Shown piece by piece: positions 3,042-40,700 of a stretch of DNA of 64,000 bases; position 1 is the first letter of the stretch; every line of letters starts with the position of its first letter. A program made the translations under genes and the position numbers. The notes beneath the pieces are model-generated. The model did no database searches, was not told the origin of the DNA, and saw only the letters and a list, made by a program, of their open reading frames with translations. The DNA is from Patescibacteria group bacterium (GTDB lineage Bacteria > Patescibacteriota > Patescibacteriia > JACQRZ01): positions 73,240-137,239 of the forward strand of contig JBBTRI010000006.1 of assembly GCA_038065255.1 (NCBI GenBank), written 5' to 3'.

Positions 3042-3647
3042 ATGATTGAAGTTGAGAAAAAATTCCTTCTCAGTGATGAGGAGCGAGAACGGCTCTTGGA
3101 AGGAGCTGAGCTCGAAAGCGAGAGGACATTTACGGACACCTACTACGATACGAGCGATTATGCATTAACAACCAAAGATACGTGGTTTCGATTTCGGGAC
3201 GGTAAGTGTGAGCTCAAGGTACCACGAAAAATGGATGATTATGATGAGCGCGCAATTGATCAATATGATGAGCTTCTGACTGAGCAAGAAATACGGCAGT
3301 ATCTTAGCTTGCCTGCACACAAAACATTTAAAGAAGACTTGGAGTACTCAGGCTATCGGTCGATTGGGACTATCACGACACATCGTAAGGCCTGGCGCAA
3401 GGAAGGTTTCGGAATTGATATTGATTATACGGATACCGGCTATTCAGTTGGAGAGATCGAGTTGCTGGTTGAAGATTCAGAAGGCCTTGAAGAAGCATCA
3501 CGTAAAATTGTTGTATTTGCACAAAAGCATCAACTCACACTCACTCCTGTGCGCGGGAAGTTTGCAGAGCATATTCGCGTGCATAATCCTGAACACTTTC
3601 AATTACTCATTGATGTTGGAGTATTTCCGGCTTCACTCAAAGATTGA
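3042..3647 (+). CDS. CYTH-domain protein (triphosphate tunnel metalloenzyme; class IV adenylate cyclase/thiamine triphosphatase family)
   Basis: N-terminal EVEKKFLL (EXEXK motif of CYTH), acidic beta-strand patches typical of triphosphate tunnel enzymes; 201 aa. Confidence 0.7.
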   Translation: MIEVEKKFLLSDEERERLLEGAELESERTFTDTYYDTSDYALTTKDTWFRFRDGKCELKVPRKMDDYDERAIDQYDELLTEQEIRQYLSLPAHKTFKEDLEYSGYRSIGTITTHRKAWRKEGFGIDIDYTDTGYSVGEIELLVEDSEGLEEASRKIVVFAQKHQLTLTPVRGKFAEHIRVHNPEHFQLLIDVGVFPASLKD

Positions 3648-3652
3648 TATGT

Positions 3653-3676
3653 AAAAAAACCTCTCTAGATGAGAGG
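3653..3676 (-). terminator. Rho-independent terminator for minus-strand transcript (hairpin CCTCTC-tagat-GAGAGG followed by U7 on minus strand)
   Basis: 6-bp GC-rich stem 3660-3665/3671-3676 with A-run 3653-3659 on + strand (U-run in minus-strand RNA); overlaps stop of 3665..4123 ORF. Confidence 0.45.
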
Positions 3677-4123
3677 TCGGGAAGGGAAGTGCGCAAGGCG
3701 GATACGCCACTGCGGTACGCCTTGTTCAGCGCATTCACGTCCTAATACAACAAGAGTAGATCTGAATTTTTTGGGCATAGTAGCAGCATGCTCTGCAAGC
3801 TCTCTACCAAGAGTGGGATCCATGGTTCCAATATGCCTCATGCCGATTGTTATCAGGCGATTAGTGCGGCGTTGCCATTGGATGTGTACACTCAGGGCAA
3901 GAATAGGGCGTACTTGTTGATCGGTAAGTCCTTTTTTGAGAAAGGAATGTTTTAAAACAAAGAACAATGCATCGCAGCTTGTTGCAAAAGCGGTATACCA
4001 TGTGTCTTTCAGCTTGAAGTAGTGAGCCGGATCACCAAGTTTTTCAGGAATCTCCAAATGATTATCTCGCATGGTACGTCGACTGCAGTGATGCCATGCG
4101 GATAATGCTATCGCCGGAAACAT
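3665..4123 (-). CDS. Hypothetical protein (152 aa)
   Basis: Only sizeable ORF filling the 3.65-4.2 kb gap between convergent/divergent neighbours; minus-strand terminator hairpin at its 3' end supports transcription; no recognisable motif. Confidence 0.4.
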   Translation of the reverse strand: MFPAIALSAWHHCSRRTMRDNHLEIPEKLGDPAHYFKLKDTWYTAFATSCDALFFVLKHSFLKKGLTDQQVRPILALSVHIQWQRRTNRLITIGMRHIGTMDPTLGRELAEHAATMPKKFRSTLVVLGRECAEQGVPQWRIRLAHFPSRPLI

Positions 4124-4204
4124 TTTTTGTAAAGATGCACCCCGCGCATAAGCGCTGTTTTTTTATTTGACTGCAGCATGAGTTTTTTATAGAGTAGAGG
4201 TACT

Positions 4205-5977
4205 ATGGGAGTAAACGTCATGCAGAACTTTACCGAAAGTGAGGAAGCACTCATACGTGCCTTTATTTTCACCAACCCCGGAGGAGATATTAGTTTTGTG
4301 TATCCGCAATCGCTGATTGCGGGAGAAGAACTCTCGCCATTGATGTCTGCTTATTCGCGTACCCATGTGCCTATGCAGGAGCGCGTATTGCAGTTCCTTG
4401 ATAAAGAAAAAACCGAGCAGACACGGGCAATGCTCCCGCATATCAAACCACTCATGGAGATTTTCAGAAATCCGGATGGCAGTCTCGCTCTTTCACGCCG
4501 CACGACCAATTTCAATGAAGAGTTTGTTCTGCTTCATGGCCACAGTTCGATTAAAGAAGAAACGAGCATCTTTGGCCACGTAGAGAATGTCTCAGATATT
4601 ACCATGAAAAAAATTACCGGGCATCCTCTCTGCAGACCGCAAGTGAAATCCACGCGCTACCTTTCCTATAAGAGTGCGCTTGATCTTGCACTTGAGGATG
4701 TAGATATCGTGTCGTTGCCGAATGCTGAAAAATTCATCGAATATCTTGCCTTCATGAATCGCCGCTATCTCGAAGTATCTGATCAGCTTACAGATTTTGT
4801 CGAACAACATCCCGATACCACTCTTGTCGTGCAGTACCTTTCAATGCCGGAGCAAGTAGAGAAGGCGACGGAAAAACGATTCGCGCGGCAAAAGAAAGGG
4901 GATCTGAATTATACTCCATCAACCGAAGAATGGGGCCGTGAGCGCGAGAAGGTCATAAAAAGCCTTGATCCCCAAGTAGTTAGAAAAGATATCGCGAAAT
5001 TTGTTTTAGACTCTTCGCGCGTATATCTGACTGCTGCCAATCGCACATCGCTTGGATTCTCTGTTGATGCACGGACACTCGAAGAAATTATCAGCGGACT
5101 CATCTCAAGTCCACGGCAGGAAGATCGTATGTTGGGCGCAAAACTCTGGGAAGAAGCTAAAAAAATCGCGCCGACGCTTTTGGGTGAACGCAGTCATGTC
5201 CGCGTGAGTCCATGGATGGTTCACAACGAAGATGTGCTGCGATCGACTATTGGAGATCTTCTTAAAGATGTTTTGGCTCATAATAGAGGAGGGAGATTTA
5301 TAAATTTGATTACTCCGCAAAAGATGAATATGTATTCGGATCGTTATAACGCTGCGCTTGTGGCGTTTGTTTATTCAGATGCTTCTCTGGAAGATATCTA
5401 TGAAGCGCTGACCGACAAAACGGCATCCGATATTCTGGAGAAAGCGCATGAGATGCGTGGAAGCTACGATATCTTACACCCTTCCATTTCTCACGGAGGT
5501 TTGATTGTCGAAATGGTTAGCGCCTACCATGGCTATCGTGATATGTATCGCCATCGGAGAGGCTCGCGTTCCGTACAACTTCTAACGACGCGTTTGGGAT
5601 TTGAAACACCTGAACTCCTCGTGCTTGCTGGCGTTGCCGATGACTATGAACGCGATATGAAGCACGCGAGCACACTCTATGAAGAAGCGCGTGCTGTCAG
5701 TGTCCATACGGCCGAAAAGCTTGTTCCCTTCGGCGCACTGTGTCGCGCGTTGCATTCCTGGCAGCCGGATCAGATTGGGTATGTGGGTCGCCTTCGTAGC
5801 TTTGCAGTAACCGGCAATATGTCGTACGTCAACCTGACGCGTGAACTGATTGCTGAAGTGGCAAAAATTATGCCGCAAACCGCGTCGTATTTTCGTTACG
5901 ATACGAGCGAGTATCCTGCGCATCTCTGGAAGGCGGGGTATGGATGGTATGATGCCGAGAGGAGGGGGAAAGTATGA
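4205..5977 (+). CDS. Hypothetical 590-aa protein; weak ThyX-like signatures (N-terminal LSPLMSAYSRT resembling ThyX LS..RAARVS, and later RHR motif) - unassigned
   Basis: Long ORF preceded by GAGGT SD-like and TTGACT/TATAGA promoter-like (4170-4200); stop overlaps next start (ATGA at 5974-5977); RHRRGSRS does not satisfy strict ThyX RHR-X7-S so not called. Confidence 0.6.
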   Translation: MGVNVMQNFTESEEALIRAFIFTNPGGDISFVYPQSLIAGEELSPLMSAYSRTHVPMQERVLQFLDKEKTEQTRAMLPHIKPLMEIFRNPDGSLALSRRTTNFNEEFVLLHGHSSIKEETSIFGHVENVSDITMKKITGHPLCRPQVKSTRYLSYKSALDLALEDVDIVSLPNAEKFIEYLAFMNRRYLEVSDQLTDFVEQHPDTTLVVQYLSMPEQVEKATEKRFARQKKGDLNYTPSTEEWGREREKVIKSLDPQVVRKDIAKFVLDSSRVYLTAANRTSLGFSVDARTLEEIISGLISSPRQEDRMLGAKLWEEAKKIAPTLLGERSHVRVSPWMVHNEDVLRSTIGDLLKDVLAHNRGGRFINLITPQKMNMYSDRYNAALVAFVYSDASLEDIYEALTDKTASDILEKAHEMRGSYDILHPSISHGGLIVEMVSAYHGYRDMYRHRRGSRSVQLLTTRLGFETPELLVLAGVADDYERDMKHASTLYEEARAVSVHTAEKLVPFGALCRALHSWQPDQIGYVGRLRSFAVTGNMSYVNLTRELIAEVAKIMPQTASYFRYDTSEYPAHLWKAGYGWYDAERRGKV

Positions 5978-6639
5978 GTATAGAGGTTGTACGCACCTAT
6001 GATTTTACCGAACTGGAACGCAAACTTCGCTCGGTTCCTTTGATGAAAAAAGACGAACAGGGAAGCGAAATCTTCCCGTATCGGCACGCTGACATCCGTT
6101 TGCGGGAATTTCATGTCGGAGAAGTTAATCCTCCGACTTTTTATTTGTTGAAAAAAAACAATGAGTTTCAACAATCGCTTCGTCGCACACTTTGTGAACA
6201 GGGATATGATTCACTTCGTCTGACGGCACAAGCGGCCTCACTTGAACTGTTCAACACAGAGACCAATGAATACTGGACACTTATTCCTCCAATCATTGAA
6301 TCGACAGTGCGGACCATCCGCTATGTACCATTTGGTGATGAAATTGATTACGGACATGCGCCGACCACCGTTACTATCCAGCTTATTTGCGACGGAGCGC
6401 ATCGTGTTGCCATGCTGCGAGAGACAGGCGGAATGTTTGCGGGAATTAGTATTGTCGGATCCAACCCTCGGCATTCCTACTATGCGCATCCCAACGGATG
6501 GGATCAGGTCAGAGAAGTTGATGAAGTGCCCACAACACCGGAAGAAAAAAAATACTACCGATTCAAGGATTGCTATGCACTCTACAGAAACTTTGAGGAT
6601 ATCGGATGCGGCAAACCTCGGGGGTTCGGAGGGTCCTGA
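5974..6639 (+). CDS. Hypothetical protein, possible ParB/sulfiredoxin-like fold (LICDGAHRVAM)
   Basis: 221-aa ORF translationally coupled to upstream gene (ATGA overlap); DGxHR motif reminiscent of ParB/Srx nuclease-like domain. Confidence 0.5.
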   Translation: MSIEVVRTYDFTELERKLRSVPLMKKDEQGSEIFPYRHADIRLREFHVGEVNPPTFYLLKKNNEFQQSLRRTLCEQGYDSLRLTAQAASLELFNTETNEYWTLIPPIIESTVRTIRYVPFGDEIDYGHAPTTVTIQLICDGAHRVAMLRETGGMFAGISIVGSNPRHSYYAHPNGWDQVREVDEVPTTPEEKKYYRFKDCYALYRNFEDIGCGKPRGFGGS

Positions 6640-6649
6640 TCAACATACT

Positions 6650-7912
6650 ATGGCAAAAATTATTCAAATTGTAGGAACGTCCGGCAGTGGGAAATCGACT
6701 GTAGAGGAAAAACTTCGCGAGAAATTAACGGTCGACGGATATATTGTGGAAACGATCATCGAGCCGGGGCCGTTGAATACATTGGCGAAATCCTATCGTT
6801 TGCGACCTGACAAAAATCCTTGGATGGAGACAGCATTGTTTAGTGTTGATCGTTTTATGACCTATACGGAACGAGTGCTGCCAAGAATGCATGAGAAAAA
6901 TCTTATCTTTCTTTCGGTACGCGGGATCTATGATACTATTGTGTATCAGGGATTACGGGGAGGCATCGATATCGAAATGATTAAAAAAATGAATGATGCA
7001 ATTCTTTTTCCCGATCTGACGCTAGCACTTGTAGTTGAAGGGAGTATTGGATTCGAACGTGCGCTTGAACGAAAAAAGGAAACAGGAGAAGAGTTGAGCA
7101 GTAATGAAACGCCAGAAAAAATAGATTTACTTGGCAGTGCCTACAAACGATTGCCTGAATTATTCCCAAATCAATGCATCAACATTATTGATACGTCATA
7201 TCTGACAAAAGAGCAGACTGTCACTATCTGCTACGATCAGATTTGGTCGCTCTTATCATCGCGACCCGCGAACGAAAAACAAAAAATTCTTTCAATTGGT
7301 TTTGATTTGGATAACACGTTGTATAAACCGAACGCAGCAAATAACGAGCGCATTCGCGCCTGTGCATGCCGCCTTGCAAGCGAACAGGTGGGGAGGCCCT
7401 ATGAAGAATTTCGAGCTGCTTTCGATGGGCTGTATGCTAAACTTCAAAGCTGCCGCCAGACGCTCGGCGCACTCGGCGCAACAGATCTGGATGATATTAT
7501 GCAGCAAGCTTTAGAAAAAGGCGTGGATCTTTCTTTTTTAGAAAAAGACCCGCGTCTCAACGGCATCCTCCATGGATTGAAAAAGAACTATTCACTTTTT
7601 CTTATTACGACCAATTCTGAGTCAATGTCATTAAAAAAACTTGAAGCCATCGGTATTGATGTTGATCTTTTTCATCCAAGAATTTATGAGCTTGATCACG
7701 CGCCGCTTACGCGCAAAGATGGTTCGGCGTTCCGCCACGTTTCTAAAGCGCTTGGGATTGATCTTTCCCGTATGCTGTTTGTCGGCGATAGAGCGCAAAC
7801 AGATATTCTTCCTGCAAAAGAGCTTGGCATGGCAACGGCAATCGTGAATGCGCAATCGGTCCATGCGGATTACCAGCTCGATGAGATTTATCAGCTGGAG
7901 GAAGTGTTGTAA
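6650..7912 (+). CDS. Fusion protein: N-terminal thymidylate-kinase-like P-loop dNMP kinase + C-terminal HAD-superfamily hydrolase
   Basis: Start chosen at ATG 6650 (MAKIIQIVGTSGSGKST Walker A) 10 nt after upstream stop; DRF..Y.....AYQG-like segment typical of Tmk; C-terminal IGFDLDNTLY (HAD motif I DxDxT) and VGDRAQTDI (motif IV). ORF-track N-extension 6242 overlaps previous gene in another frame and is rejected. Confidence 0.65.
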   Translation: MAKIIQIVGTSGSGKSTVEEKLREKLTVDGYIVETIIEPGPLNTLAKSYRLRPDKNPWMETALFSVDRFMTYTERVLPRMHEKNLIFLSVRGIYDTIVYQGLRGGIDIEMIKKMNDAILFPDLTLALVVEGSIGFERALERKKETGEELSSNETPEKIDLLGSAYKRLPELFPNQCINIIDTSYLTKEQTVTICYDQIWSLLSSRPANEKQKILSIGFDLDNTLYKPNAANNERIRACACRLASEQVGRPYEEFRAAFDGLYAKLQSCRQTLGALGATDLDDIMQQALEKGVDLSFLEKDPRLNGILHGLKKNYSLFLITTNSESMSLKKLEAIGIDVDLFHPRIYELDHAPLTRKDGSAFRHVSKALGIDLSRMLFVGDRAQTDILPAKELGMATAIVNAQSVHADYQLDEIYQLEEVL

Positions 7913-7990
7913 AAGAAGGAGCCAGATTGAATGTGTCAACAGGGGCATCCCTTCCATTTTTTATATCTAATGGTACACTGAAATTATTCT

Positions 7991-8980
7991 ATGAATTATA
8001 TAGTTACAGGCGGAGCCGGGTTTATCGGGAGTCACATGGTGGATCTTCTGATTAAAGAAGGGCACACTGTCATTGTGGTGGATAATTTATCCAGCGGACA
8101 CAGAGAAAATTTGGAACACCACGGGAATAATCAGCAGCTGATAACCTATCGGCGAAGTGTGTGCGACGGACTCGAAGATATTTTTGAGCATTTCACACCG
8201 ATTGCGGGGATTATCCATTTTGCCGGAGTTCCTGGCGTGCAGCTTTCCATTCAACATCCCGAAACAACCCATCATTTTAATCTCAATGGCACACTGAATT
8301 TGCTGGAAACAGCGCGGCGATTTGGCGTGAAGCGTATCATCTACTCGTCAAGCGCCGCTGTGTATGGCGACCAAGATGTGATGCCTCTGCGCGAAGATGT
8401 GCATCCGCATCCACTTTCGCCCTATGCGCTCCATAAGTTTACTGGCGAAGAATATTGCAGGCTCTATCAAAAGCTCTATGGGCTTGAAACGGTTGCATTA
8501 CGGTATATGAATGTGTTTGGTTCGCGACAGGATCCGGCCGGACCCTATGCTTCGGCAATCCCACGCTTTATCAATCTGCTCTTGCGTGGAGTGCCGCCTC
8601 GCATCAACGGCGATGGTGAACAGACGCGAGATTTTATCCACGTCGAGGATGTTGTTCGTGCAGTGAAGAGTGCGTTGATGTTAGATAACCAATCTATTTT
8701 TGGCCAGGCATTCAATATTGGGTCGGGAATGAGTATCTCGGTGAACGAAGTTGTGCGTCACATCGGTCGCATTGCAGAACAGGAGGTGCGTTCTGAGTAT
8801 GCCCCATCAGTTGTGGAGATTCGCCATTCATGCGCGGATATTTCAAAGGCAAAGGAATTGCTTGGGTGGGAGCCGCAAAAGAATTTGATAGATGGCTTGC
8901 ATGAAACATACCGCCATATGAAAAAGAGCGAAGAAATCATTCCGAGCGAGCCATATGCAATCGGATCACATTTGAGATAA
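7991..8980 (+). CDS. NAD-dependent epimerase/dehydratase (extended SDR; UDP-sugar 4-epimerase/GalE-WbpP-like)
   Basis: N-terminal Rossmann motif TGGAGFIGSH, catalytic YALHK (YxxxK), GDGEQTRDFIHVEDV segment typical of GalE-family. Confidence 0.8.
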   Translation: MNYIVTGGAGFIGSHMVDLLIKEGHTVIVVDNLSSGHRENLEHHGNNQQLITYRRSVCDGLEDIFEHFTPIAGIIHFAGVPGVQLSIQHPETTHHFNLNGTLNLLETARRFGVKRIIYSSSAAVYGDQDVMPLREDVHPHPLSPYALHKFTGEEYCRLYQKLYGLETVALRYMNVFGSRQDPAGPYASAIPRFINLLLRGVPPRINGDGEQTRDFIHVEDVVRAVKSALMLDNQSIFGQAFNIGSGMSISVNEVVRHIGRIAEQEVRSEYAPSVVEIRHSCADISKAKELLGWEPQKNLIDGLHETYRHMKKSEEIIPSEPYAIGSHLR

Positions 8981-8991
8981 TTTTCAGGATA

Positions 8992-10728
8992 ATGAATTCC
9001 ATTAATGAACATATCGCAGCGATTTTTGATGAGCTGGCAGTATTGTTTGAGATGGATGGCATTGCGTTTAAGCCTCGGGCATACGAAAAGGCTGCCGAAG
9101 AAATTCGTAACTACCCTGAGAGCCTAGATGTGGTCTATGGGCACAAAGGAAGGAAGGGGCTCGATGAGATTCCCGGGGTTGGAATTGGAATGGCAGAAAA
9201 AATCGAGGAATTTTTCAAAACAAAACACATAGGAGAATACAAGCAATATAAGAAAAAATACCCTATTTGCATTTCTGAACTGCGGTCAGTGGAAGGTGTG
9301 GGGCCGAAACATATTTTGTTAATGTATAAAAAACTCGGCATTGCATCCCTTTGCGATCTTGAACGAGCGATTAGACGACATGAGTTGAGAAACCTGCCTG
9401 GTTTTGGTGAAAAAACGGAAAAACGTATTGCCGAATCAATCTCCTTTCTTTCCAAAGACAGAGGAAGGCGCTTGTTAGGTCATGTACTGCCATTAGCTGA
9501 GCACATAGAGCTCTATTTGCAAGGCTTGCCGGGTGTGAAACATGCGGCAGTTGCCGGATCTATCCGCCGCCGACAGGAAACCATCGGTGATATTGATATA
9601 CTTGTATCAACATCACATCCATCCATGGCACTGGATGCATTTGTTGGTATGAGCGAGGTTGTTTCGGTTGTATCAAGAGGAGAGAAAAAAGCGCATGTGC
9701 GCCTTACCAATGGAATGAATGCGGATTTGTTAGTGGTTGATGATAAAATTTTTGGCGCAGCGTTGCAGTATTTTACTGGCGATAAGCAGCATAATATTCT
9801 TGTGCGCGAACGCGCGTCTAAGCAGGGAATGAAATTGAATGAATATGGACTTTGGAAGGAAAAAAAACGATTGGTTGCAAGGACGGAAAAAGATATCTAC
9901 CGAGCGCTTGGCATGGACTATATCGAACCGGAACTGCGCACTGCAAGCAGTGAACTACAAGCGGCACTAGCGAAAAAATTGCCGCACCTCGTGCCGTATG
10001 GATCCGTGCGCGGAGATCTTCAAACACAAACGGGTTGGACCGACGGATCGGCATCAATCCATGAAATGGCGCAAGCTGCGCTTGACTTGGGTCGTGAATA
10101 TATCGCCGTTACCGATCATACGAAAGCGCTAGCCATGACTGGCGGTCTTAATGAAATAGGATTGGCGCGCCAGGGCAGAGAAATCGATAAAGAAAATATC
10201 TTTTTCAAACAAAAAGGCATTCGCATTCTCAAAAGCGCAGAAGTGAATATTCTCAAAGACGGTTCACTCGATATTACTGATACCGCATTGAAGAAGTTGG
10301 ATGTTGTCGGCATCGCCGTGCACTCGCATTTCAAGCTTTCCCGTTCAGCTATGACCGAGAGGGTTATTCGTGCTATAAAAAATCGGAATGTTGATATTCT
10401 ATTTCATCCCACGGGGCGGCTTATCAATAAACGCCCAGGCTATGAAATCGATATGGAAAAAGTCATACGTGCTGCAAAGGAGTATCATGTTGCGCTTGAG
10501 ATCAATGCCTATCCGGAGAGGAGTGACTTGCGTGATGAGCATGTGCGTCTCGCAGTGAAGCTTGGCGCAAAGATGGTAATTAATAGTGATGCGCATGCAC
10601 CGGAGCATTTGAAATACATTCCTCTTGGCGAAGCGATTGCCCGCCGAGGTTGGGCGGAGAGCAAAGATATCCTTAACACTCAGCCTCTCAAAAAATGCCT
10701 ATCGTATTTTAGAAAATACCGTAGATAG
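8992..10728 (+). CDS. polX: DNA polymerase X family protein with C-terminal PHP phosphoesterase domain
   Basis: HhH motifs (GVGIGMAEKI, GVGPKHILL, GFGEKTEKRI), Pol-beta-like nucleotidyltransferase GDIDILV, C-terminal PHP motifs (AVTDHT, HSHF, INSDAHAPEH); 578 aa. Confidence 0.85.
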   Translation: MNSINEHIAAIFDELAVLFEMDGIAFKPRAYEKAAEEIRNYPESLDVVYGHKGRKGLDEIPGVGIGMAEKIEEFFKTKHIGEYKQYKKKYPICISELRSVEGVGPKHILLMYKKLGIASLCDLERAIRRHELRNLPGFGEKTEKRIAESISFLSKDRGRRLLGHVLPLAEHIELYLQGLPGVKHAAVAGSIRRRQETIGDIDILVSTSHPSMALDAFVGMSEVVSVVSRGEKKAHVRLTNGMNADLLVVDDKIFGAALQYFTGDKQHNILVRERASKQGMKLNEYGLWKEKKRLVARTEKDIYRALGMDYIEPELRTASSELQAALAKKLPHLVPYGSVRGDLQTQTGWTDGSASIHEMAQAALDLGREYIAVTDHTKALAMTGGLNEIGLARQGREIDKENIFFKQKGIRILKSAEVNILKDGSLDITDTALKKLDVVGIAVHSHFKLSRSAMTERVIRAIKNRNVDILFHPTGRLINKRPGYEIDMEKVIRAAKEYHVALEINAYPERSDLRDEHVRLAVKLGAKMVINSDAHAPEHLKYIPLGEAIARRGWAESKDILNTQPLKKCLSYFRKYRR

Positions 10729-10793: not shown

Positions 10794-12395
10794 ATGAAGC
10801 AGTGGATTTCGAACGCATACCTTTGCCATATGGATACGCCGATCGACTATGACGACATCATATTTCTGCCCCATGAATTGTATCAACCGAAAACACTCAA
10901 TCACGAAATGAGAAGAGCATATCGGAATGAGAGGTTAAAAAAGATCATTCCGCGAAGTTGGACATTGGATTGGCAGCATGAAGCCGAAGAAAAGCATCTT
11001 GCTCATCATCGAGTATCTGGCACGCTTATGCGTAATACGAGCTTTTTAAATGAATTACGAGCGGAGTATGCAGGTTTCAGAAGACAGATGCATGCTGAGC
11101 CCTCCTGGATCAATACATTGCCAAAAAAGATACGGGGAGACATACGCAGATATTGGCATGCAGTGGAATACGAAGACCCGGAATGCATTGTCCCGTTTAT
11201 GCCGTTCTCTGATGTGCGATACCTTGTGCGGGAAGGTGGCATCTGCACGCATGCAATCCGTTCATGTGCTCTCTACCGTCTTGGCCATATCAGACAACTC
11301 GGTAATTTACACGATCCGATTGTATTCGAAGAAGGATTTGCGGCACTGGGACAGCGCTTCGGACATACGCGCTACCAGCATGTGCATGATGTATCCGCAT
11401 TGATAACCCTCATGGGATTAAATAACGGCATTGAGCATCGTTTGTTGTCGCACCTGCGCATTTCTGCGCTTATTCACGATGGGCTCACACCCGCTCATGG
11501 GGATGGCACAAAAGCGATTGACCCCGAAAGATTTGATGAAGATGCGTTTATTGCGGCACTTCTTACTGGTGCGGAGTGGGAGGAGTTCAGGGACAGGTAT
11601 GGCATTTCAAAAAGCCTCTTGGTTGATATTGTACAGCATCGCCATAACCTTGGCGTGATGCTCGACTATGCCGATCGCATTGCCTATGTATCACGCGATC
11701 TGGAAGCGTATTTGATGAGGTATCATAAGTACTTGCGTGTCAACAAATCTCGCGATTATCAGATGCTTTTGGAGATTGTGAAGCGTGATCCGCAGGTATG
11801 TTCGCTCTGGGACACGATTCGTCTCGATGCAAGTGGTGCCGTGTATTGCGATAATCCTGAAAAACTTGAGCAGTTTCTCCGGGTGCGCATTTTAATGTTT
11901 CGTGCACTGTACTACAATCCTCATGCACGATTCATGGAGTACTTTGTCAGTCGAGCCATTACAGGAGTATTGTATAAAAAAGGACTTCTGACTCATGAAG
12001 CGCTATTGAGGATGGGAGATTTTGAGCTTGATGGGATCATCGGTAATGTTCTTAATGACCCCTACACTATGGCATTTCCCAGTGATTTTGGTGAAGCACA
12101 TCTCAAGCGTTTTGCGAACCGTGAAGAAGCGGCATGTTTTGAAGCTGATCTCAAACGGCAGGGGATTATAATCACGCTTCTTGATGATGTTGACCGCAAG
12201 ATAAGGTCTGGGACGAAATACAGAGTCAAAAATGCCCGTGGCGATATCGCGGCATTCCACACTCTCTATTCCCATCAGGCGGCAGCTCTTGAGCGCCTCT
12301 GCATCATTCCCAATCCATTTGCAGTTTATTGGATTGAGAACAATGCAGTTACCGAGCGCGTACAGGGATTACTGGAAGATCCAGTAGCGCCATAA
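10794..12395 (+). CDS. HD-domain metal-dependent phosphohydrolase (dGTPase/SAMHD1-like motif arrangement), paralog 1
   Basis: HTRYQHVHDV ... ALIHDGLTPAHGDGTK ... DYADRIAYVSRD (H...HD...H...D pattern); 533 aa; ~40% identical patches to neighbouring gene 12492..14075. Confidence 0.65.
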   Translation: MKQWISNAYLCHMDTPIDYDDIIFLPHELYQPKTLNHEMRRAYRNERLKKIIPRSWTLDWQHEAEEKHLAHHRVSGTLMRNTSFLNELRAEYAGFRRQMHAEPSWINTLPKKIRGDIRRYWHAVEYEDPECIVPFMPFSDVRYLVREGGICTHAIRSCALYRLGHIRQLGNLHDPIVFEEGFAALGQRFGHTRYQHVHDVSALITLMGLNNGIEHRLLSHLRISALIHDGLTPAHGDGTKAIDPERFDEDAFIAALLTGAEWEEFRDRYGISKSLLVDIVQHRHNLGVMLDYADRIAYVSRDLEAYLMRYHKYLRVNKSRDYQMLLEIVKRDPQVCSLWDTIRLDASGAVYCDNPEKLEQFLRVRILMFRALYYNPHARFMEYFVSRAITGVLYKKGLLTHEALLRMGDFELDGIIGNVLNDPYTMAFPSDFGEAHLKRFANREEAACFEADLKRQGIIITLLDDVDRKIRSGTKYRVKNARGDIAAFHTLYSHQAAALERLCIIPNPFAVYWIENNAVTERVQGLLEDPVAP

Positions 12396-12491: not shown

Positions 12492-14075
12492 ATGAAAAAA
12501 GGATATCTTGGAAAATTTTTACGAGATATAGAAGATGACTGGTATGTCGATGACATAGTTTTTTTGCCCGTTCCGCTTCGCAGCGATCTTGAGGTAGAAC
12601 ATGTAGTGCATCAATTCATGATGCAGGACGTTTTTTACGCGAAGGTGCGTCTGTGGAGTAATGACGCTGACTATTTCAATACTCAGAACGCAAAGCACGT
12701 ACTGCAGTCTATCCGATTTGAATATGATGTATATTGTAATAATTACCACGGAGAGCCTGAGTGGATCCCGAGTGCACCACAGCGGTTGAGAGCGGATCTT
12801 CGTTCTAATCGGCGACCCTGCTGGATTGATGAAAATCAGGATATTACTCTTGCGCCATTCCGCTTGCCATATTCAAGTATCCACTACTGTATTAAAGATA
12901 GAGGACTCGCGCATGATATTGAGCGCGCATGCAACCTATGGCGCATAACCGACGTGCGTCAACTTGGGAATCTAAGCGATCCGACCATAGAACAGGGAAG
13001 CCATATTCATCGCTGCGAATTGCGTCATCGCCATACACGCTACATGCATGTTATGGATGTGCATGTAATGCTGTTGTTGATTGCAAAAAACAACGGGATT
13101 TCAGAGAGAGATATTCTCCATTTACGCATTGCTGGCATATTGCATGATGCGCTTACTCCAGCGCATGGGGACACAACAAAACTTGTTGACCCTGAAGCAT
13201 TTGATGAAGATGCCAATGTGAGAACGCTTTTTGTCAGTCAAGAGTGGAAAAATGTTAGAGAAGCCTACAGTCTAGATGAAGATCTTATTGCAGACACCGT
13301 TCAGGGGAAGGGGTTGTTTGGAGAATTACTCGATATAGCAGATAAGCTGTGCTATGTTGCGCGGGACGCATGGGCATTTGTTGAGCGGTGTAGGTCGCTT
13401 CAAGATCACGAGTTGCCGGAAGGTGCGCGGACAATCCTCGGAATTCTTAAAGGATATCCCACTCTCTGTGATCTCTGGGAGACGGTCAGAATTGAACAGG
13501 ATCGACCAGTCTTTACTGATGGAGTTTGGCTTGGCGCATTCCTGCGCTTGCGCACACTTTTGTTTAAGTACTTCTATTTCTCGCCAAATGCACGGTATGT
13601 AGAATATGTCCTTGCGAAAGTTATGATCAATTATCTTTATCGCACGCAGAAATTGAATGCAAAAAAGTTATTGTCCATGAATGATGGTGATGTGGATCGC
13701 ATGATAGGCGAACTTGTAGGAACGCCATGGGTGATGCACCAGCCGGAATCAGTTGGACGTCCATTCAGTGAAGAGTTCAACACCCTTGCTGCCGCTCAAA
13801 AGCGCGAGAAGGAAATTATTGCATCTGGCAATCCACTGACACTCATTGAAGATCTCACTGGCAAATGCAAACCATCAACTAAGTTTCTCGTTTGGACAGA
13901 GGGGGGAAGTGTCGTGCCTTTTCAGGAAGCGCACCAAATGGCAGCAGAACTTATTCGCCAAACGGCAACTATTACGCCACCTATTCAATTGTACTATGTG
14001 CCCGATCCACATATGCGCCACGATACGCTTGTGAAGCTGTTAAAGCATCGCAAGAAGGAGTGCGGTATTTTCTAG
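12492..14075 (+). CDS. HD-domain metal-dependent phosphohydrolase, paralog 2
   Basis: HTRYMHVMDV ... ILHDALTPAHGDTTK...DPEAFDEDA ... LDIADKLCYVARD; 527 aa; N-terminal D.IVFLP motif also shared with paralog 1. Confidence 0.65.
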   Translation: MKKGYLGKFLRDIEDDWYVDDIVFLPVPLRSDLEVEHVVHQFMMQDVFYAKVRLWSNDADYFNTQNAKHVLQSIRFEYDVYCNNYHGEPEWIPSAPQRLRADLRSNRRPCWIDENQDITLAPFRLPYSSIHYCIKDRGLAHDIERACNLWRITDVRQLGNLSDPTIEQGSHIHRCELRHRHTRYMHVMDVHVMLLLIAKNNGISERDILHLRIAGILHDALTPAHGDTTKLVDPEAFDEDANVRTLFVSQEWKNVREAYSLDEDLIADTVQGKGLFGELLDIADKLCYVARDAWAFVERCRSLQDHELPEGARTILGILKGYPTLCDLWETVRIEQDRPVFTDGVWLGAFLRLRTLLFKYFYFSPNARYVEYVLAKVMINYLYRTQKLNAKKLLSMNDGDVDRMIGELVGTPWVMHQPESVGRPFSEEFNTLAAAQKREKEIIASGNPLTLIEDLTGKCKPSTKFLVWTEGGSVVPFQEAHQMAAELIRQTATITPPIQLYYVPDPHMRHDTLVKLLKHRKKECGIF

Positions 14076-29237: not shown

Positions 29238-29825
29238 GTGACAGAACGTTCCTTGCCACAATTCATTACGTTTTCCGGCCCTTCCGGATCAGGTAAGTCT
29301 GCAACTGCACGGCATCTTATCACTGTTTGTCAAAGGATTGAACTTGCGCGTGGATACACAACGCGTATGCCACGCGAATATGAACGTAAACGGCCATTCA
29401 AGTACCGTGAATACCACCATGTTTCCCTTGAGAAATTTAATGAGCTGGAGCAGAGTGGCAAACTTGAGTGGAGTATCACATTGGAAAGCGGGCGCTATGC
29501 AACACCTCGAACGCTTTTTGAGAGAAACCGAGATACAACCCTTCTCTTTCTTGTTACTCCCGATGTTGTGCCTCGCATTCGCGACCTTTCAAAAGGACCC
29601 GTTGTATCATTCTACTTCTTTCCGCCACCAATGGAAGAAATAATACGGAGAATGAAAGCGCGCAGAGATACTGAAGATGAAATTGCCAAGCGAGTCGTCG
29701 ACAGCAGGTCTTCATCGTGGATCAGCCCCCTCAAAGATAGCAGCATTCAATGGGTGCCTATTATTACCGAGGATAGGTCGGTCGAGCAGACGATTCAAAT
29801 GATCAGAGACCACCTGGGAATATAA
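29238..29825 (+). CDS. Guanylate kinase-like P-loop kinase, divergent paralog
   Basis: GTG start; FSGPSGSGKS Walker A, TTRMPREYE (TTR.PR) NMP-binding region but GNxYGT replaced by ESGRYATP. Confidence 0.6.
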   Translation: MTERSLPQFITFSGPSGSGKSATARHLITVCQRIELARGYTTRMPREYERKRPFKYREYHHVSLEKFNELEQSGKLEWSITLESGRYATPRTLFERNRDTTLLFLVTPDVVPRIRDLSKGPVVSFYFFPPPMEEIIRRMKARRDTEDEIAKRVVDSRSSSWISPLKDSSIQWVPIITEDRSVEQTIQMIRDHLGI

Positions 29826-30144: not shown

Positions 30145-30747
30145 ATGGTAACGAGTATGGTTCATAAATATACGGCAATAAAACTTATTACGTTTACCGG
30201 GGCATCGGGAGTGGGTAAGACTGTCATTGCCCGTACGCTTCTTGAGCGGTTTCCGCTGTTTGGATGGCTGGAAAGCATTACAACCAGAGAAATCCGGCCG
30301 ACGAATTTTCCAGACGAATATGTCCATGTGTCGCAGGGGGAATTTCTCCAGTGGGTTTCGGAAGAAAAATTTGTAGAATGGGTGCAGGTACACGGGAATG
30401 ATTATTACGGTACACTGAAAGGATCACTTGATCGAGTACTTACAGATCCCAAGCGCATTTATTTAAAAACTATCGATCCTGTCGGTTTGGCAAAAATCCA
30501 TGCCTATGCCCCGTCGGCATTGCTGCCTTTCTATGTTCTTGCCCCATCGGAAGACATCCTGCGGCAACGGCTAAGCGACCGAGGGGAGAGCGAAGAGACT
30601 GTTCAGAGGCGCTTGCATGATTGCGAGCGCTGGGATGCTGATGCGCGCCAATCAAAAATCCCGTATGTTTTTATTCAAAATGAAAAAACAATCGAAGATG
30701 TCATCGAGCATATTATTGATTTTTTGAGCGGGCGCGGTGTGATATAA
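30145..30747 (+). CDS. gmk: Guanylate kinase (canonical-looking paralog)
   Basis: FTGASGVGKT Walker A, ITTREIRP, EYVHVSQGEF, EWVQVHGNDYYGT (GN.YGT) typical of Gmk. Confidence 0.6.
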   Translation: MVTSMVHKYTAIKLITFTGASGVGKTVIARTLLERFPLFGWLESITTREIRPTNFPDEYVHVSQGEFLQWVSEEKFVEWVQVHGNDYYGTLKGSLDRVLTDPKRIYLKTIDPVGLAKIHAYAPSALLPFYVLAPSEDILRQRLSDRGESEETVQRRLHDCERWDADARQSKIPYVFIQNEKTIEDVIEHIIDFLSGRGVI

Positions 30748-37798: not shown

Positions 37799-40700
37799 AT
37801 GAAGCACTATTTTAATCGTAGTTTTTCACCTATGAATGTTCGGATAACACTCAAGAAGTTTCTTACGCAAATAACGGCTGTTGCTGTTATTTTTTGGTCT
37901 TTAGGGCCGGCATCGTTTCTGAATCCGCTCTCTGCTGATGCTGCCGTATCGACGCTTACTGCTACAGCCATTGCAAGCAGAAATCAAGTATTAGGCACTT
38001 CTGCTCCGGCAACAGCTGTACTCGGATTGAACGCTGTTCAGAGCGCGGGCGAGCAACTATCACAGGTGGTTGTGTCAATTAATCCCACAGGCACTATTGC
38101 TCCATCGGATTTTGCAGCACTTGCTACGGATGCCACCTCCGGTGTTGCGCTGTACGCCGATAATGCCGGTGGCGGCACTCAAGGAGTATTTGATGCTACT
38201 GACACTGCTGTGCCACTTGCGGCTGCGCCCTCTTTTAATACTAATAGCCAATTGGTACGTTTGACACCAACCGCATTTTCTGCGACAGCTTCTACCGATA
38301 ATTCCTATGCATTGACAGATGGCGATGTTGTTTTTACTCGGACATCCACCGAACAGAGTTATGCATGGCACGTAGTAAAGGTTGGCAATGGCGGGACGGG
38401 CGGCATGACAAATCAAGCGGTTCGTTTTGAAAATACGGCAACCCTCCCTCTGATCGTTAATAGCGGAGTCCTTTCGAAATTTACTCCGGAAGCAACAGGG
38501 AACTTCACGATCAATGGTACGGCGAATACAACAGTATTTTCAAGCGGAGCAACTCCAGCCCTGTCAACCGGTGATATTGTCCTCTATTCAGGCGGTACGA
38601 CACTTTCCCGCTGGGGCATGGTGAGTGGTGCGTTTACAGCTACTAATGCTCCTGTTGACGGACAAAATTTGGCGAATGAGACCTATCGCATGAGTCGTGC
38701 TGCAGGCGTTACCGGCAGCTACTCAGTTGGGCCAAATGGAGCTGTTACGGTAACCGGCGCATTGAATACCGCACCTCTAACCGCTGGCGACATGGTGCTC
38801 TACCGAGATACGGCAACAACAAGCCAGGCGCAATGGGGTGTTGTGACAAATGCAACCCTTACGAGCGGCATCTTTGCAATAGATGGCGTACCCTTGGCGC
38901 CAGGGACAACAGCAACGCCAAAAGTCTATCAGATCACCAAGTTGAATGCCTACGTTAATGCAACAAAACTTTTAACAACAAATGCAGATACAAATGTAAC
39001 TGCAGGTACGGTTGCCTATACGCTTCTTACGTCAAATACCGACTTTAATGGTGCTGCCGTTGCGCGAAATACTGCCAACTGGCACGTTGTAACGACAGCC
39101 GGCAATACAGTAAACGGCGATGCAAATCTTCGATTGAAATTTAATAGCAGCACTTCTGTTCCGACATTTGGAAATCCCGCTCCGTTGCGCGTTACTTTGG
39201 CGGCAAATGCGCTTCAGGCGATACCGGCAAATGATACGGATGCAGACAAGGTGGGACCAGACTTTTTTGTGGTGGTAAAGGGCGCAGCAACACCAGTGGC
39301 AAATAATGGGTTTACTGCTTCGATTTCTTCAACCTATTTTAGCACCGCGATAGCCGCTATTCCGGCAGTGGTTACTCCAACCTATACATTCTCACCCACG
39401 CCTGTTACCACTTCGGCTCAAGCCGCCCAGCAACTAACTTCAAACACAACACTGTTACCTGCAAGCGAAACATTCTATGCGTTAAAACTCAACCTTTCCC
39501 AATCGAATCAACCCAATGTTCGTGCAATGCGCGTGGTGGTCAATCCGTCGGGGGCGGGGTCTATCAATGACTTGGCGCCAATTACTGATGATGCAACATC
39601 CGGCATTACCCTTCTTAAAGATGATAAATCAAACGGCATGGGAAGAGGTGCCCCGGATGCCACAGATACTTTTGTCGGCAATACATTTGATCTTGGCGGA
39701 CGTTCACAATTCAACAGCACTCAATTGGTCAAAGTAACTCCAAGCTTAACAGCGACTGACAATGGCAATGCTGCCGAGGGGATGCTTGCTGTTGTTGTTG
39801 GCGATGCGGTATTTGCGCGAGTTGGTGCCGGTTCGTATATGTGGCATATGGTGACAACTGCCGGTAATCTGTCTTCCGATGCTACTACCGAAGGCACGGC
39901 TGGTCTTGACGGTTTAAGTGCGGCAAATTCTCTTGTTGCCGCAGGCAGTCAAATGAATAAACTCAATCCCCAAAACGGTACGGGAACTCTTACGGTCGGT
40001 GGTGAGGTGAATCTTACAACGCTTAATTTTGCAGCAAATGATATCATTTTTTATCAGGGAGGTATGGGTGCTCCAAAGTGGGATATTGTTACCTCGGCAA
40101 CCGCGGCAGATATTGTAACGCTTGGCACTCCCCTCCAAAATGGAAACTATCGGGTAAGTAAGTTTACACCGGACGCAAATCGCACCGCCTATGGCATCGG
40201 CGATATTGTACTGTACCAGAACAATTCAACATTTGCCGGCGATACAAAATTCGCAATCATTACCGGTTTTGATCGCGATAATGCCGATGCGGTTATTGGC
40301 TATACGCTTTCTACCGGTGAGACTGTGCCACTTGCACGCCTTATCAAATTCACCGGCTTTGGCCAAGTAAGTAAGGATGTTGGTGCGACTGATTATGCAT
40401 TGATCGACGGTGATTTGGTTTTGGGTATGCCAACACTCAATCCTATGACATCAACAACCGATTGGCATGTTGTCACAACACCAAATGGCGGTGCGCTTGG
40501 CATGAACAATGCCATCCGCCTCAATGATATTGGCGCAGGGGAACCTCGCTTTAATGGCACTGTTGTTATGTTGACCCCGGGAGCTGTGAGTGCGGTATTA
40601 CCGGATGATGCAGGCAACAACGCGCAATCAGATTATTTCATCGGTGTTCGAACGTCGCGCATGGCGGCAAATGGCAATGCATTTACTGTTAGCATTCCTT

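Follow-up and report, generated by a model that had tools for sequence, protein, structure and literature searches.

The Locus

The stretch of DNA considered here, referred to in what follows as the window, comprises 64,000 nucleotides (positions 73,240 to 137,239 of contig JBBTRI010000006.1, GenBank assembly GCA_038065255.1) from a genome labelled Patescibacteria by NCBI. Near its start lie three consecutive forward-strand genes, of 590, 221 and 420 codons, that we call genes 1 to 3. Gene 1 (4205-5977) encodes a predicted tandem form of the flavin-dependent thymidylate synthase ThyX in which the active-site motif is divided between two fused domains, gene 2 (5974-6639) a divergent protein of predicted ParB/Srx fold (Srx, sulfiredoxin) with a ParB-CE domain, and gene 3 (6650-7912) a thymidylate kinase (Tmk) joined to a HAD phosphatase. 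The features on which the argument rests are as follows, with the evidence for each in brackets.

4205..5977, + strand: gene 1, predicted tandem two-domain ThyX (flavin-dependent thymidylate synthase-like), 590 amino acids (Pfam, AlphaFold2 model, Foldseek, NCBI annotation)
4205..5200, + strand: N-terminal ThyX domain of gene 1, residues ∼1-332 (Pfam, invariant residues, secondary structure, hhalign)
4649..4660, + strand: S-T-R-Y, residues 149-152, N-domain share of the ThyX motif (S-x-R-Y; invariant in a 44-sequence alignment)
5201..5977, + strand: C-terminal ThyX domain of gene 1, residues ∼333-590 (hhalign of N- against C-domain; Pfam matches of relatives' C-domains)
5549..5557, + strand: R-H-R, residues 449-451, C-domain share of the ThyX motif (RHR; 44-sequence alignment)
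5974..6639, + strand: gene 2, predicted ParB/Srx-fold protein, Pfam PF24392 'ParB CE domain', 221 amino acids (Pfam, AlphaFold2, weak fold matches)
6391..6405, + strand: D-G-A-H-R, residues 140-144 of gene 2, ParB/Srx-type nucleotide-phosphate-binding motif (D140, G141, H143 and R144 invariant among 18 homologues)
6604..6621, + strand: G-C-G-K-P-R, residues 211-216 of gene 2, C-terminal tail motif with a conserved Cys (G211, C212, G213, P215 and R216 invariant)
6650..7258, + strand: N-terminal thymidylate kinase domain of gene 3, residues ∼1-203 (Pfam, PDB matches, PHROG)
7259..7912, + strand: C-terminal HAD-IA phosphatase domain of gene 3, residues ∼204-420 (Pfam, motifs)

The three genes form a real operon. 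The stop codon of gene 1 overlaps the start codon of gene 2 in an ATGA at 5974-5977, just 3' of a GGAGG-rich stretch, and gene 2 ends in a TGA at 6637-6639 that is separated by 10 nucleotides from the ATG of gene 3 at 6650. Both junctions, read directly from the sequence, agree with the coupling described in an earlier sequence-only reading of this DNA, and the motifs quoted there (GTSGSGKST, VYQG, DLDNT and GDRAQTD in gene 3, RHR at residues 449-451 of gene 1) are all present. A GAGG lies six bases 5' of the gene 1 ATG. A longer, TTG-initiated open reading frame (6242-7912) overlaps gene 2, and the start of gene 3 called in the public record is the ATG at 6650.

A Tandem ThyX with a Divided Active-Site Motif

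Profile matches and a predicted structure place gene 1 in the ThyX fold and family. Residues 103-324 match Pfam Thy1 (PF02511) with 42.7 bits against a cut-off of 24.8, covering profile positions 41-191, and the protein is annotated by NCBI as 'FAD-dependent thymidylate synthase'. An AlphaFold2 model computed with 27 homologues has a mean predicted local distance difference test score (pLDDT) of 91.6 and a predicted TM-score of 0.89, and the top 50 matches returned by a Foldseek search of the PDB with this model are all ThyX (FDTS) or the ThyX homologue PolB, with probabilities of 0.98-1.0 (mostly 1.00), target TM-scores of 0.46-0.59 and E-values of ∼0.02-0.1; query-normalised TM-scores are lowered by the two-domain nature of the query and the fold assignment per domain is indirect. 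The sequence-only reading had described the protein as weakly ThyX-like. Membership in the family is upheld by Pfam and by the structural comparison, whereas the weakness is not, given the Pfam score cited above.

The duplication is apparent at several levels. In the model the order of secondary structure elements of residues 1-332 recurs in residues 333-590, the N-domain bearing in addition a helical insertion of ∼100 residues at positions ∼155-255. Comparison of the N- and C-halves with hhalign gives no detectable similarity for the close family, but in the broader alignment of 44 sequences the N-domain (125-326) aligns with the C-domain (434-560) with an E-value of 2.4e-5 and a probability of 76%. 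The C-domain of gene 1 taken alone gives no Pfam Thy1 match, whereas the C-domains of the relatives P0133 and P0107 do; several relatives carry two Pfam Thy1 stretches, the better one lying in the C-half for these same two proteins, and the C-domain of a further relative, P0139, aligns to the solved ThyX structures of Helicobacter pylori and Mycobacterium tuberculosis (Mtb).

Long tandem forms are numerous in both bacteria and archaea, an exhaustive profile search with the gene 1 family returning 1,715 cluster representatives at E<=0.001, mostly 470-620 residues in length. The ThyX of chlamydiae, with ∼530 residues, may be another tandem form and one already characterised. Members from Woesearchaeota, Pacearchaeota, Armatimonadota and Myxococcota are annotated by NCBI as 'FAD-dependent thymidylate synthase'; the gene for a distant tandem ThyX of the Nanoarchaeia (P0125) is found between a FolC-like gene and the genes for DHFR and SHMT; and a relative of 741 residues (P0124) is a natural fusion of Tmk with tandem ThyX. 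Taken together the folate gene cluster, the Tmk fusion and the annotations argue for a genuine thymidylate synthase function.

As judged by alignment, each of the two domains keeps what the other has lost. The N-domain retains GHxSxxE (H111-E118), S149-T-R151-Y152 and R272 and has G139-H-P at the RHR position, while the C-domain retains R449-H-R451 and R531 and has L-L-T-T at the position of S-x-R-Y, so that gene 1 reads GHP-X7-STRY in its first half and RHR-X7-LLTT in its second. The equivalences between the domains, obtained from hhalign together with the alignment of P0139 to solved ThyX, are the following.

G139-H-P of the N-domain is equivalent to R449-H-R451 of the C-domain
S149-T-R151-Y152 of the N-domain is equivalent to L459-L-T-T462 of the C-domain
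R272 of the N-domain is equivalent to E504 of the C-domain
I300 of the N-domain is equivalent to R531 of the C-domain

The sequence-only reading had named an RHR and an N-terminal ThyX-like segment, but the RHR is located in the C-terminal domain and not in that segment; it had also observed that the RHR-X7-S rule fails in gene 1, and this failure is explained by the division of the motif over tandem domains. The division extends to the whole family: a contiguous RHR-x7/8-SxRY occurs in none of the 193 family proteins of at least 450 residues, and 177 of these 193 have SxRY upstream with RHR more than 200 residues downstream. Among 44 sequences with 19-60% identity to the window protein, residues S51, R52, S149, R151, Y152, R272, R445, D446, R449, R451, R531 and Y541 are invariant, and H450 is nearly so.

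In ordinary ThyX homotetramers each dUMP site is built from different chains. In the Mtb enzyme two chains contribute to the binding of a single dUMP, the first with Arg95 and Arg199, the second with Arg87, Ser105, Arg107 and the Tyr108 lid (PMC6514825). Of these, Arg95 opens the RHR motif, Arg199 is the distal Arg to which R531 aligns, and Ser105, Arg107 and Tyr108 belong to the SxRY loop (S105-Q-R107-Y108), to which the S-T-R-Y of gene 1 aligns by way of P0139. The counterparts in gene 1 are therefore R449 and R531 in the C-domain and S149, R151 and Y152 in the N-domain, all invariant. From this partition of contacts together with the division of the motif we infer that the C-domain plays the role of the first chain and the N-domain that of the second, the reciprocal site being degenerate.

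Gene 1 thus shares with canonical ThyX (PF02511; for example Thermotoga maritima TM0449 and the Mtb enzyme) its predicted fold, Pfam membership for the N-domain and the GHxSxxE, S-x-R-Y, RHR and distal Arg residues, but canonical enzymes are homotetramers of ∼220-250 residues whereas gene 1 has ∼590 in two fused domains, a motif shared out between N and C, the helical insertion in the N-domain and a score below the TIGR02170 cut-off. Duplication of ThyX itself is not new, having been noted in 2009 by Valas and Bourne, in whose passage on the subject a domain-duplicated ThyX is mentioned for Chloroflexi and 'a few other species' as 'not characterized' (PMC3224940). The internal duplication of the Chloroflexi proteins can be likened to that in gene 1 by description only, and that passage does not describe a complementary split; relative to them the clade of gene 1 has the additional GHP substitution and the linkage to ParB-CE, Tmk and HAD genes. 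We found no description of the complementary motif split in the literature, and it goes beyond the existing annotation of the enzyme.

It might be argued that gene 1 is instead a catalytically dead, ThyX-like scaffold and that the operon serves salvage or regulation and not de novo thymidylate synthesis. Such a pseudoenzyme would account for the lack of a contiguous ThyX motif and the degenerate RHR of the N-domain, for a score of 23.8 bits against the NCBIfam thyX equivalog TIGR02170, whose cut-off is 87.9, and for the outcome of HMMER searches of PDB chain sequences in which no solved ThyX was matched, with either the single sequence or a 27-sequence profile. We nevertheless consider it very unlikely. 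What one domain has lost is exactly what the other keeps, and the retained residues do not vary even in sequences with as little as 19% identity to the window protein, a pattern that points to purifying selection on one composite active site. In addition the family is linked to folate-cycle genes and is found fused to Tmk.

One subclade of the family at ∼45% identity (L028, L029 and L032), without adjacent ParB-CE, has a conserved small MTS-type methyltransferase gene divergently upstream (− strand) of the tandem ThyX gene, and in its ThyX ∼30 residues of the helical insertion of the N-domain are missing.

The Tmk-HAD Protein

Gene 3 is clearly, as far as profiles and motifs can tell, a Tmk followed by a HAD phosphatase, as the sequence-only reading had it. 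The N-terminal domain scores 61.8 bits against Pfam Thymidylate_kin (cut-off 27), matches phrog_761, thymidylate kinase, and contains the P-loop GTSGSGKST (residues 9-17), EPG, F..DR and VYQG (98-101); the family alignment retains G-x-S-G-x-G-K, EP, F..DR, R-G/S and YQ. In a search of PDB sequences the 17 best matches are all Tmk, the best with an E-value of 2.6e-13, and among the 30 matches listed 23 are Tmk and 7 pertain to the HAD half. The nearest solved relatives of the kinase are therefore thymidylate kinases and not, as had been considered, shikimate or gluconate kinases.

The C-terminal domain carries DLDNT (219-223; motif I, DxDxT) and GDRAQTD (379-385; motif IV, GDxxxD), motifs that it shares with HAD-IA pyrimidine 5'-nucleotidases, and lies above the cut-offs of Pfam Hydrolase (PF00702), HAD_2 (PF13419) and Hydrolase_like (PF13242). 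The NCBIfam models nearest to it are CTE7 and pyrimidine 5'-nucleotidase, both below cut-off. The fusion itself, which had been viewed as distinctive, is less so in the light of the relatives described in the following section: the two parts are fused in the window and in some of these but are separate genes in most. They lie side by side but unfused, at times with HAD first, in 13 of 27 loci and form a single gene of ∼385 codons in six others.

Conservation and Probable Origin of the Cassette

The synteny sample consists of 27 species-representative loci in GTDB genomes, 25 of which are informative. ThyX, ParB-CE, Tmk and HAD genes occur together in 20 of these 25, all of them in DPANN archaea, so that the cluster is borne out as a conserved set. 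The placement of the ParB-CE gene is distributed as follows.

18 loci of 27: ParB-CE directly 3' of ThyX
1 locus of 27: one CARF/Csa3-like gene between ThyX and ParB-CE
1 locus of 27: ParB-CE divergently upstream of ThyX
5 loci of 27: no ParB-CE within 6 kb of ThyX
2 loci of 27: contig ends at the ThyX gene

Recurrence of one gene order in ∼20 independent genomes, at protein identities of 42-74%, puts the arrangement far beyond chance. The cassette has ribosomal protein S10, SerRS and CysRS genes as neighbours in one Pacearchaeote, and in a Woesearchaeote it is followed immediately by NrdR and a class II ribonucleotide reductase (RNR).

Membership of the operon in a defence system or a phage family was considered and rejected, genes 1 and 2 having no match in PADLOC or PHROG. 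Pattern scans of IMG/VR returned no relatives of either gene, the patterns being short peptides with which distant viral relatives could be missed.

At a metagenomic DPANN locus outside the 27 (L005) two ParB-CE paralogues (5287-5937 and 7770-8423) flank the tandem ThyX gene, the upstream copy being the more similar to the window protein. Within or beside the cassette, at this locus (4498-5196) and at one other (L013, 2620-3333), is a gene for a Rossmann protein of CARF/Csa3-like type (matches to HFX_2341_N and Csa3_N, and a weak one to a winged helix at the C-terminus), which may regulate transcription of the operon by sensing nucleotides.

While all 27 species-representative loci are labelled archaeal, the window carries bacterial markers, namely PheS and PheT of bacterial type (PheT with an FDX-ACB domain), and BipA is encoded on the same contig. 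A wyosine radical-SAM gene of archaeal type lies beside the cassette at the closest of the 27 loci (70% identity). An identical gene 1 protein is found on contigs of 143-147 kb from several public sources, three of which were read, making a chimeric contig unlikely. On the simplest reading the cassette is native to DPANN archaea and was probably acquired laterally by the Patescibacterium.

A Predicted ParB/Srx-Fold Protein Linked to Thymidylate Synthesis

The assignment of gene 2 as ParB/Srx-like agrees with what had been read from its sequence and is now based on Pfam PF24392, a DGxHR motif and weak fold matches. The protein scores 47.2 bits against PF24392 (cut-off 23) with profile positions 1-93 of 147 covered; distant bacterial members match the full length of the profile with up to 250 bits. 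Further to the two motifs listed above, Y170, P173, N174, W176, K192-K193, Y201, L203, Y204 and R205 are invariant in the 18 homologues. The AlphaFold2 model (pLDDT 88.4) is mainly β-strand, with final residues of low confidence. At the top of searches with this model against PDB and viral structures stand Atu1540, Noc, sulfiredoxin, pNOB8 ParB and phage 'ParB/Sulfiredoxin' proteins, all weak (E-values of 0.04-0.3), and a sequence search of PDB chains gave no match. From what is known of the superfamily we take the position of DGAHR to be that of GERR in ParB, of GGCHR in Srx and of DGHHR in the nuclease-type proteins.

Sulfiredoxin has the highest target-normalised TM-score among the solved matches (∼0.55) and shares the position of the G-x-H-R motif, but in the family of gene 2 the catalytic Cys of GGCHR is replaced by Ala, Ile, Leu or Met (DG[AILM]HR) and an invariant Cys is found instead in the C-terminal GCGKPR tail. 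Both sulfiredoxin and partition ParB were rejected as identities for gene 2, the former on account of the absent catalytic Cys and the latter for want of a helix-turn-helix (HTH).

A word-indexed search of 90%-identity clusters returned 82 ParB-CE proteins, and the surroundings of several remote homologues again involve thymidylate or its precursors. In an archaeon (L036, 1-10616) NrdR, NrdD, NrdG and two unknown proteins, one of them weakly ThyA-like, are followed by ParB-CE, HAD, dCMP deaminase, thioredoxin, dUTPase and a Thy1 protein of 441 residues with two Thy1 stretches; at L040 ParB-CE is accompanied by a bona fide ThyA (194 bits), DHFR, HIT and dCMP deaminase; at L037 a HAD gene precedes ParB-CE; and in a deltaproteobacterium (L035) the ParB-CE gene overlaps the stop codon of a dCMP deaminase gene. 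Since ParB-CE is linked in this way to both of the unrelated types of thymidylate synthase, its role is more probably at the substrates or products of the pyrimidine deoxynucleotide pathway, or in its control, than in flavin chemistry. The link to thymidylate synthesis is strong and appears to be undescribed so far.

A ParB/Srx fold and a DGxHR motif resembling those of 'ParB-like nuclease' domains could also belong to an ordinary DNA-binding ParB, either a partition or nucleoid protein or a nuclease, that happens to lie in this operon by chance. This we hold to be extremely improbable. ParB-CE is linked to ThyX in 20 of 25 loci and the start of gene 2 overlaps the stop codon of the ThyX gene; Pfam detects no HTH or other DNA-binding domain in the protein, which has 221 residues and is largely β-strand; no ParA-type or other partition ATPase gene is present within the operon; and remote homologues have come to lie, independently, beside genes for ThyA, dCMP deaminase, dUTPase and HAD proteins.

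Precedents for a nucleotide-binding role exist. The ParB-CTPase fold is a versatile NTP-binding switch with specificity for CTP, ATP or GTP (PMC12704722), and a ParB-like protein without a DNA-binding domain activates a phage thymine dioxygenase (PMC13229309). Gene 2 and the ParB-like activator of phage thymine dioxygenases (PMC12704722; PMC13229309) would have in common a nucleotide-binding fold of ParB/Srx type with no evident DNA-binding domain, and each is encoded beside, and presumably works with, an enzyme that modifies pyrimidines at C5. They differ in that the partner of gene 2 would be a thymidylate synthase acting at the nucleotide level in a cellular housekeeping operon, whereas that of the activator is a phage dioxygenase acting on DNA, and in that gene 2 belongs to another Pfam family (PF24392) than the ParB-CTPase proteins, its matches to solved ParB, Noc and Srx being weak (E-values of 0.05-0.3). 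Thymidylate, ThyX and DPANN go unmentioned in the main text of the survey of ParB-CTPases (PMC12704722), and literature searches on ThyX in DPANN, PF24392, 'ParB-CE' and CT632 found nothing relevant.

The unknown neighbours of distant ParB-CE proteins, of 313-356 residues, were considered as a common partner and rejected, being mutually unrelated by BLASTP (one weakly ThyA-like, one patatin-like and one weakly GT2-like). In the deltaproteobacterium (L035, 967-6606) ParB-CE lies beside a patatin-like protein, the dCMP deaminase and a large N6/N4 methyltransferase, and at L041 (222-4106) beside a YAcAr/DprA-like protein and a clamp-loader-like AAA protein. Contexts such as these two resemble those of conflict systems or mobile elements, and the wider ParB-CE family may perhaps not be purely housekeeping.

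Proposed Function of the Operon

We propose, with a probability of roughly 0.7, that the cluster is a housekeeping operon for the conversion of dUMP to dTMP and on to dTDP, furnished with a nucleotide-binding accessory protein and acquired from DPANN archaea. Gene 1 would be a flavin-dependent thymidylate synthase converting dUMP into dTMP by means of a fused pair of specialised ThyX domains, the N-domain contributing the Ser-x-Arg-Tyr substrate loop and the C-domain the Arg-His-Arg and the distal uracil-binding Arg. Only composite sites formed from N- and C-domains would be functional, so that a dimer of the protein would mimic the ThyX tetramer with two rather than four active sites. The Tmk domain of gene 3 is expected to phosphorylate dTMP to dTDP, and its HAD domain is probably a 5'-phosphatase for pyrimidine (deoxy)nucleotides that balances or cleans the pool. 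Gene 2 would bind a nucleotide at the dUMP/dTMP node, either as an NTP-sensing partner or activator of the synthase or as an enzyme that provides pyrimidine deoxynucleotides or acts on them, for example by hydrolysis of dCTP or dUTP or by phosphorylation of nucleosides.

A more specific form of the proposal for gene 2, which we put forward tentatively and would not favour over its negation, is that ParB-CE is a hitherto overlooked component dedicated to thymidylate synthesis and accompanies the half-of-sites tandem ThyX as part of a cassette that has passed between DPANN archaea and bacteria of the Candidate Phyla Radiation (CPR). It might dock on both ThyX and ThyA as a regulatory subunit or NTP-sensing activator, or be a new enzyme of the ParB/Srx fold, such as a dCTP/dUTP hydrolase or a deoxynucleoside kinase, feeding the dUMP node.

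Several observations weigh against these proposals. For gene 1 there are the shortfall against the NCBIfam equivalog and the HMMER searches described above, to which is added that the GHP of the N-domain amounts to a loss of both RHR arginines in the clade of gene 1. Gene 3 scores 67.4 bits against the dTMP kinase equivalog TIGR00041, below the cut-off of 83.25, neither of its halves thus reaching an NCBIfam equivalog, and, although it shares the P-loop, EPG, F..DR and YQG motifs of Tmk, it has Ser in the P-loop where canonical Tmk usually has Asp. Given this Ser, and a HAD domain whose action on dTMP would work against the kinase, the product may conceivably be a non-canonical nucleotide. As to ParB-CE, it is far rarer than tandem ThyX (82 proteins in 90%-identity clusters versus 1,715 representatives of 50%-identity clusters), and from this together with its absence at 5 of the 25 informative loci it follows that it is not required for catalysis in general; the ParB-CE loci L038, L039 and L041 are uninformative or of a mobile or replication-like character, seemingly unrelated to thymidylate.

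The atypical Tmk, below its equivalog cut-off and with Ser in the P-loop, leads to a further interpretation, close to the thymidine hypermodification that the sequence-only reading had raised, in which the cluster makes a non-canonical or hypermodified pyrimidine nucleotide, for instance a 5-substituted dUMP or dCMP with subsequent phosphorylation, or a precursor of the kind that some phages use to hypermodify their DNA. The pairing of a kinase with a phosphatase is odd for a simple pathway; ParB-like partners of pyrimidine-C5-modifying enzymes exist in phage thymidine hypermodification clusters (PMC13229309); and some ThyX homologues act on other substrates, such as the UMP/dUMP methylase PolB, which is among the fold matches of gene 1. 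We regard this interpretation as unlikely all the same, and hypermodification of thymidine is not supported. The contexts of the cassette in DPANN genomes are chromosomal and of a housekeeping kind (NrdR-RNR, ribosomal protein S10, aminoacyl-tRNA synthetases), no glycosyltransferase, aminotransferase or other decoration enzyme is conserved nearby, the residues that contact dUMP in solved ThyX are invariant in the gene 1 family, and distant tandem ThyX genes lie beside those for DHFR, SHMT and a FolC-like protein. The IMG/VR, PHROG and PADLOC results for genes 1 and 2 given above point the same way.

For the dUMP to dTDP operon that we prefer, the assignments of gene 1, which is already annotated accordingly by NCBI, and of gene 3 are ordinary. 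What goes beyond annotation is the complementary split of the ThyX motif, the link between ParB-CE and thymidylate and the distribution of the cassette over two domains of life.

Other Features of the Window

Two pattern matches from a consensus scan bracket the three-gene unit, the count of promoter-like sites in the region not being above shuffled expectation:

4167..4195, + strand: promoter-like, sigma-70-like site TTGACT-17-TAGAGT upstream of gene 1 (pattern match only)
7941..7960, + strand: terminator-like hairpin (7941-7953) followed by a T-run, after gene 3 (pattern match only)

The GC content of the operon is unremarkable relative to the remainder of the window. The sequence-only reading had placed a CYTH triphosphatase gene immediately upstream of the operon, but between the CYTH gene (3042-3647, Pfam CYTH) and gene 1 lies an open reading frame of 152 codons on the opposite strand (3665-4123, −), a gene in the public record without a family match. 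CYTH is not conserved with the cassette, being found at only one other locus at a distance of ∼3.4 kb, and for these reasons was rejected as a fourth member of the cluster.

Downstream of the operon a PolX-PHP gene (8992-10728) is followed by two adjacent paralogues of ∼530 residues (10794-12395 and 12492-14075, +) with a conserved H..HD-like core in both (e.g. ALIHDGLTPAHGDGTK); Pfam gives no match for the first and for the second a weak HD match only (17.9 bits, below cut-off). Neighbouring guanylate-kinase-like genes are located at 29238-29825 and 30145-30747 (+), the first barely above the Pfam cut-off, and a giant open reading frame of 4,823 codons (37799-52270, +) lies in a region of raised GC content (about 0.49 versus 0.45 elsewhere). 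The whole 64 kb contain no tRNA genes and no Rfam match at gathering threshold.

Implications

DPANN archaea and CPR bacteria have minimal genomes, and the supply of DNA precursors in these organisms is poorly understood; the cassette appears to provide their core route to dTMP and dTDP. The split ThyX motif offers a clean natural example of how a homo-oligomer can become a fused pseudo-oligomer, half of its sites being lost in complementary fashion, and the tandem enzyme provides a defined system for establishing the contribution of each chain in ThyX, a target for antibacterial drugs. Were ParB-CE to prove only a loosely associated nucleotide-binding protein, the finding would shrink to a correctly annotated ThyX-Tmk operon. 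The repeated association of a ParB/Srx-fold protein with both unrelated types of thymidylate synthase and with dCMP deaminase suggests that pyrimidine deoxynucleotide metabolism has a step or control point still to be assigned. The link would broaden the range of functions recently recognised for the ParB-CTPase fold and, were ParB-CE a dedicated component of thymidylate synthesis, would make it the first ParB-fold protein assigned to dNTP metabolism. Finally, the bacterial host of an otherwise archaeal cassette would constitute a concrete case of exchange between two ultra-small radiations.

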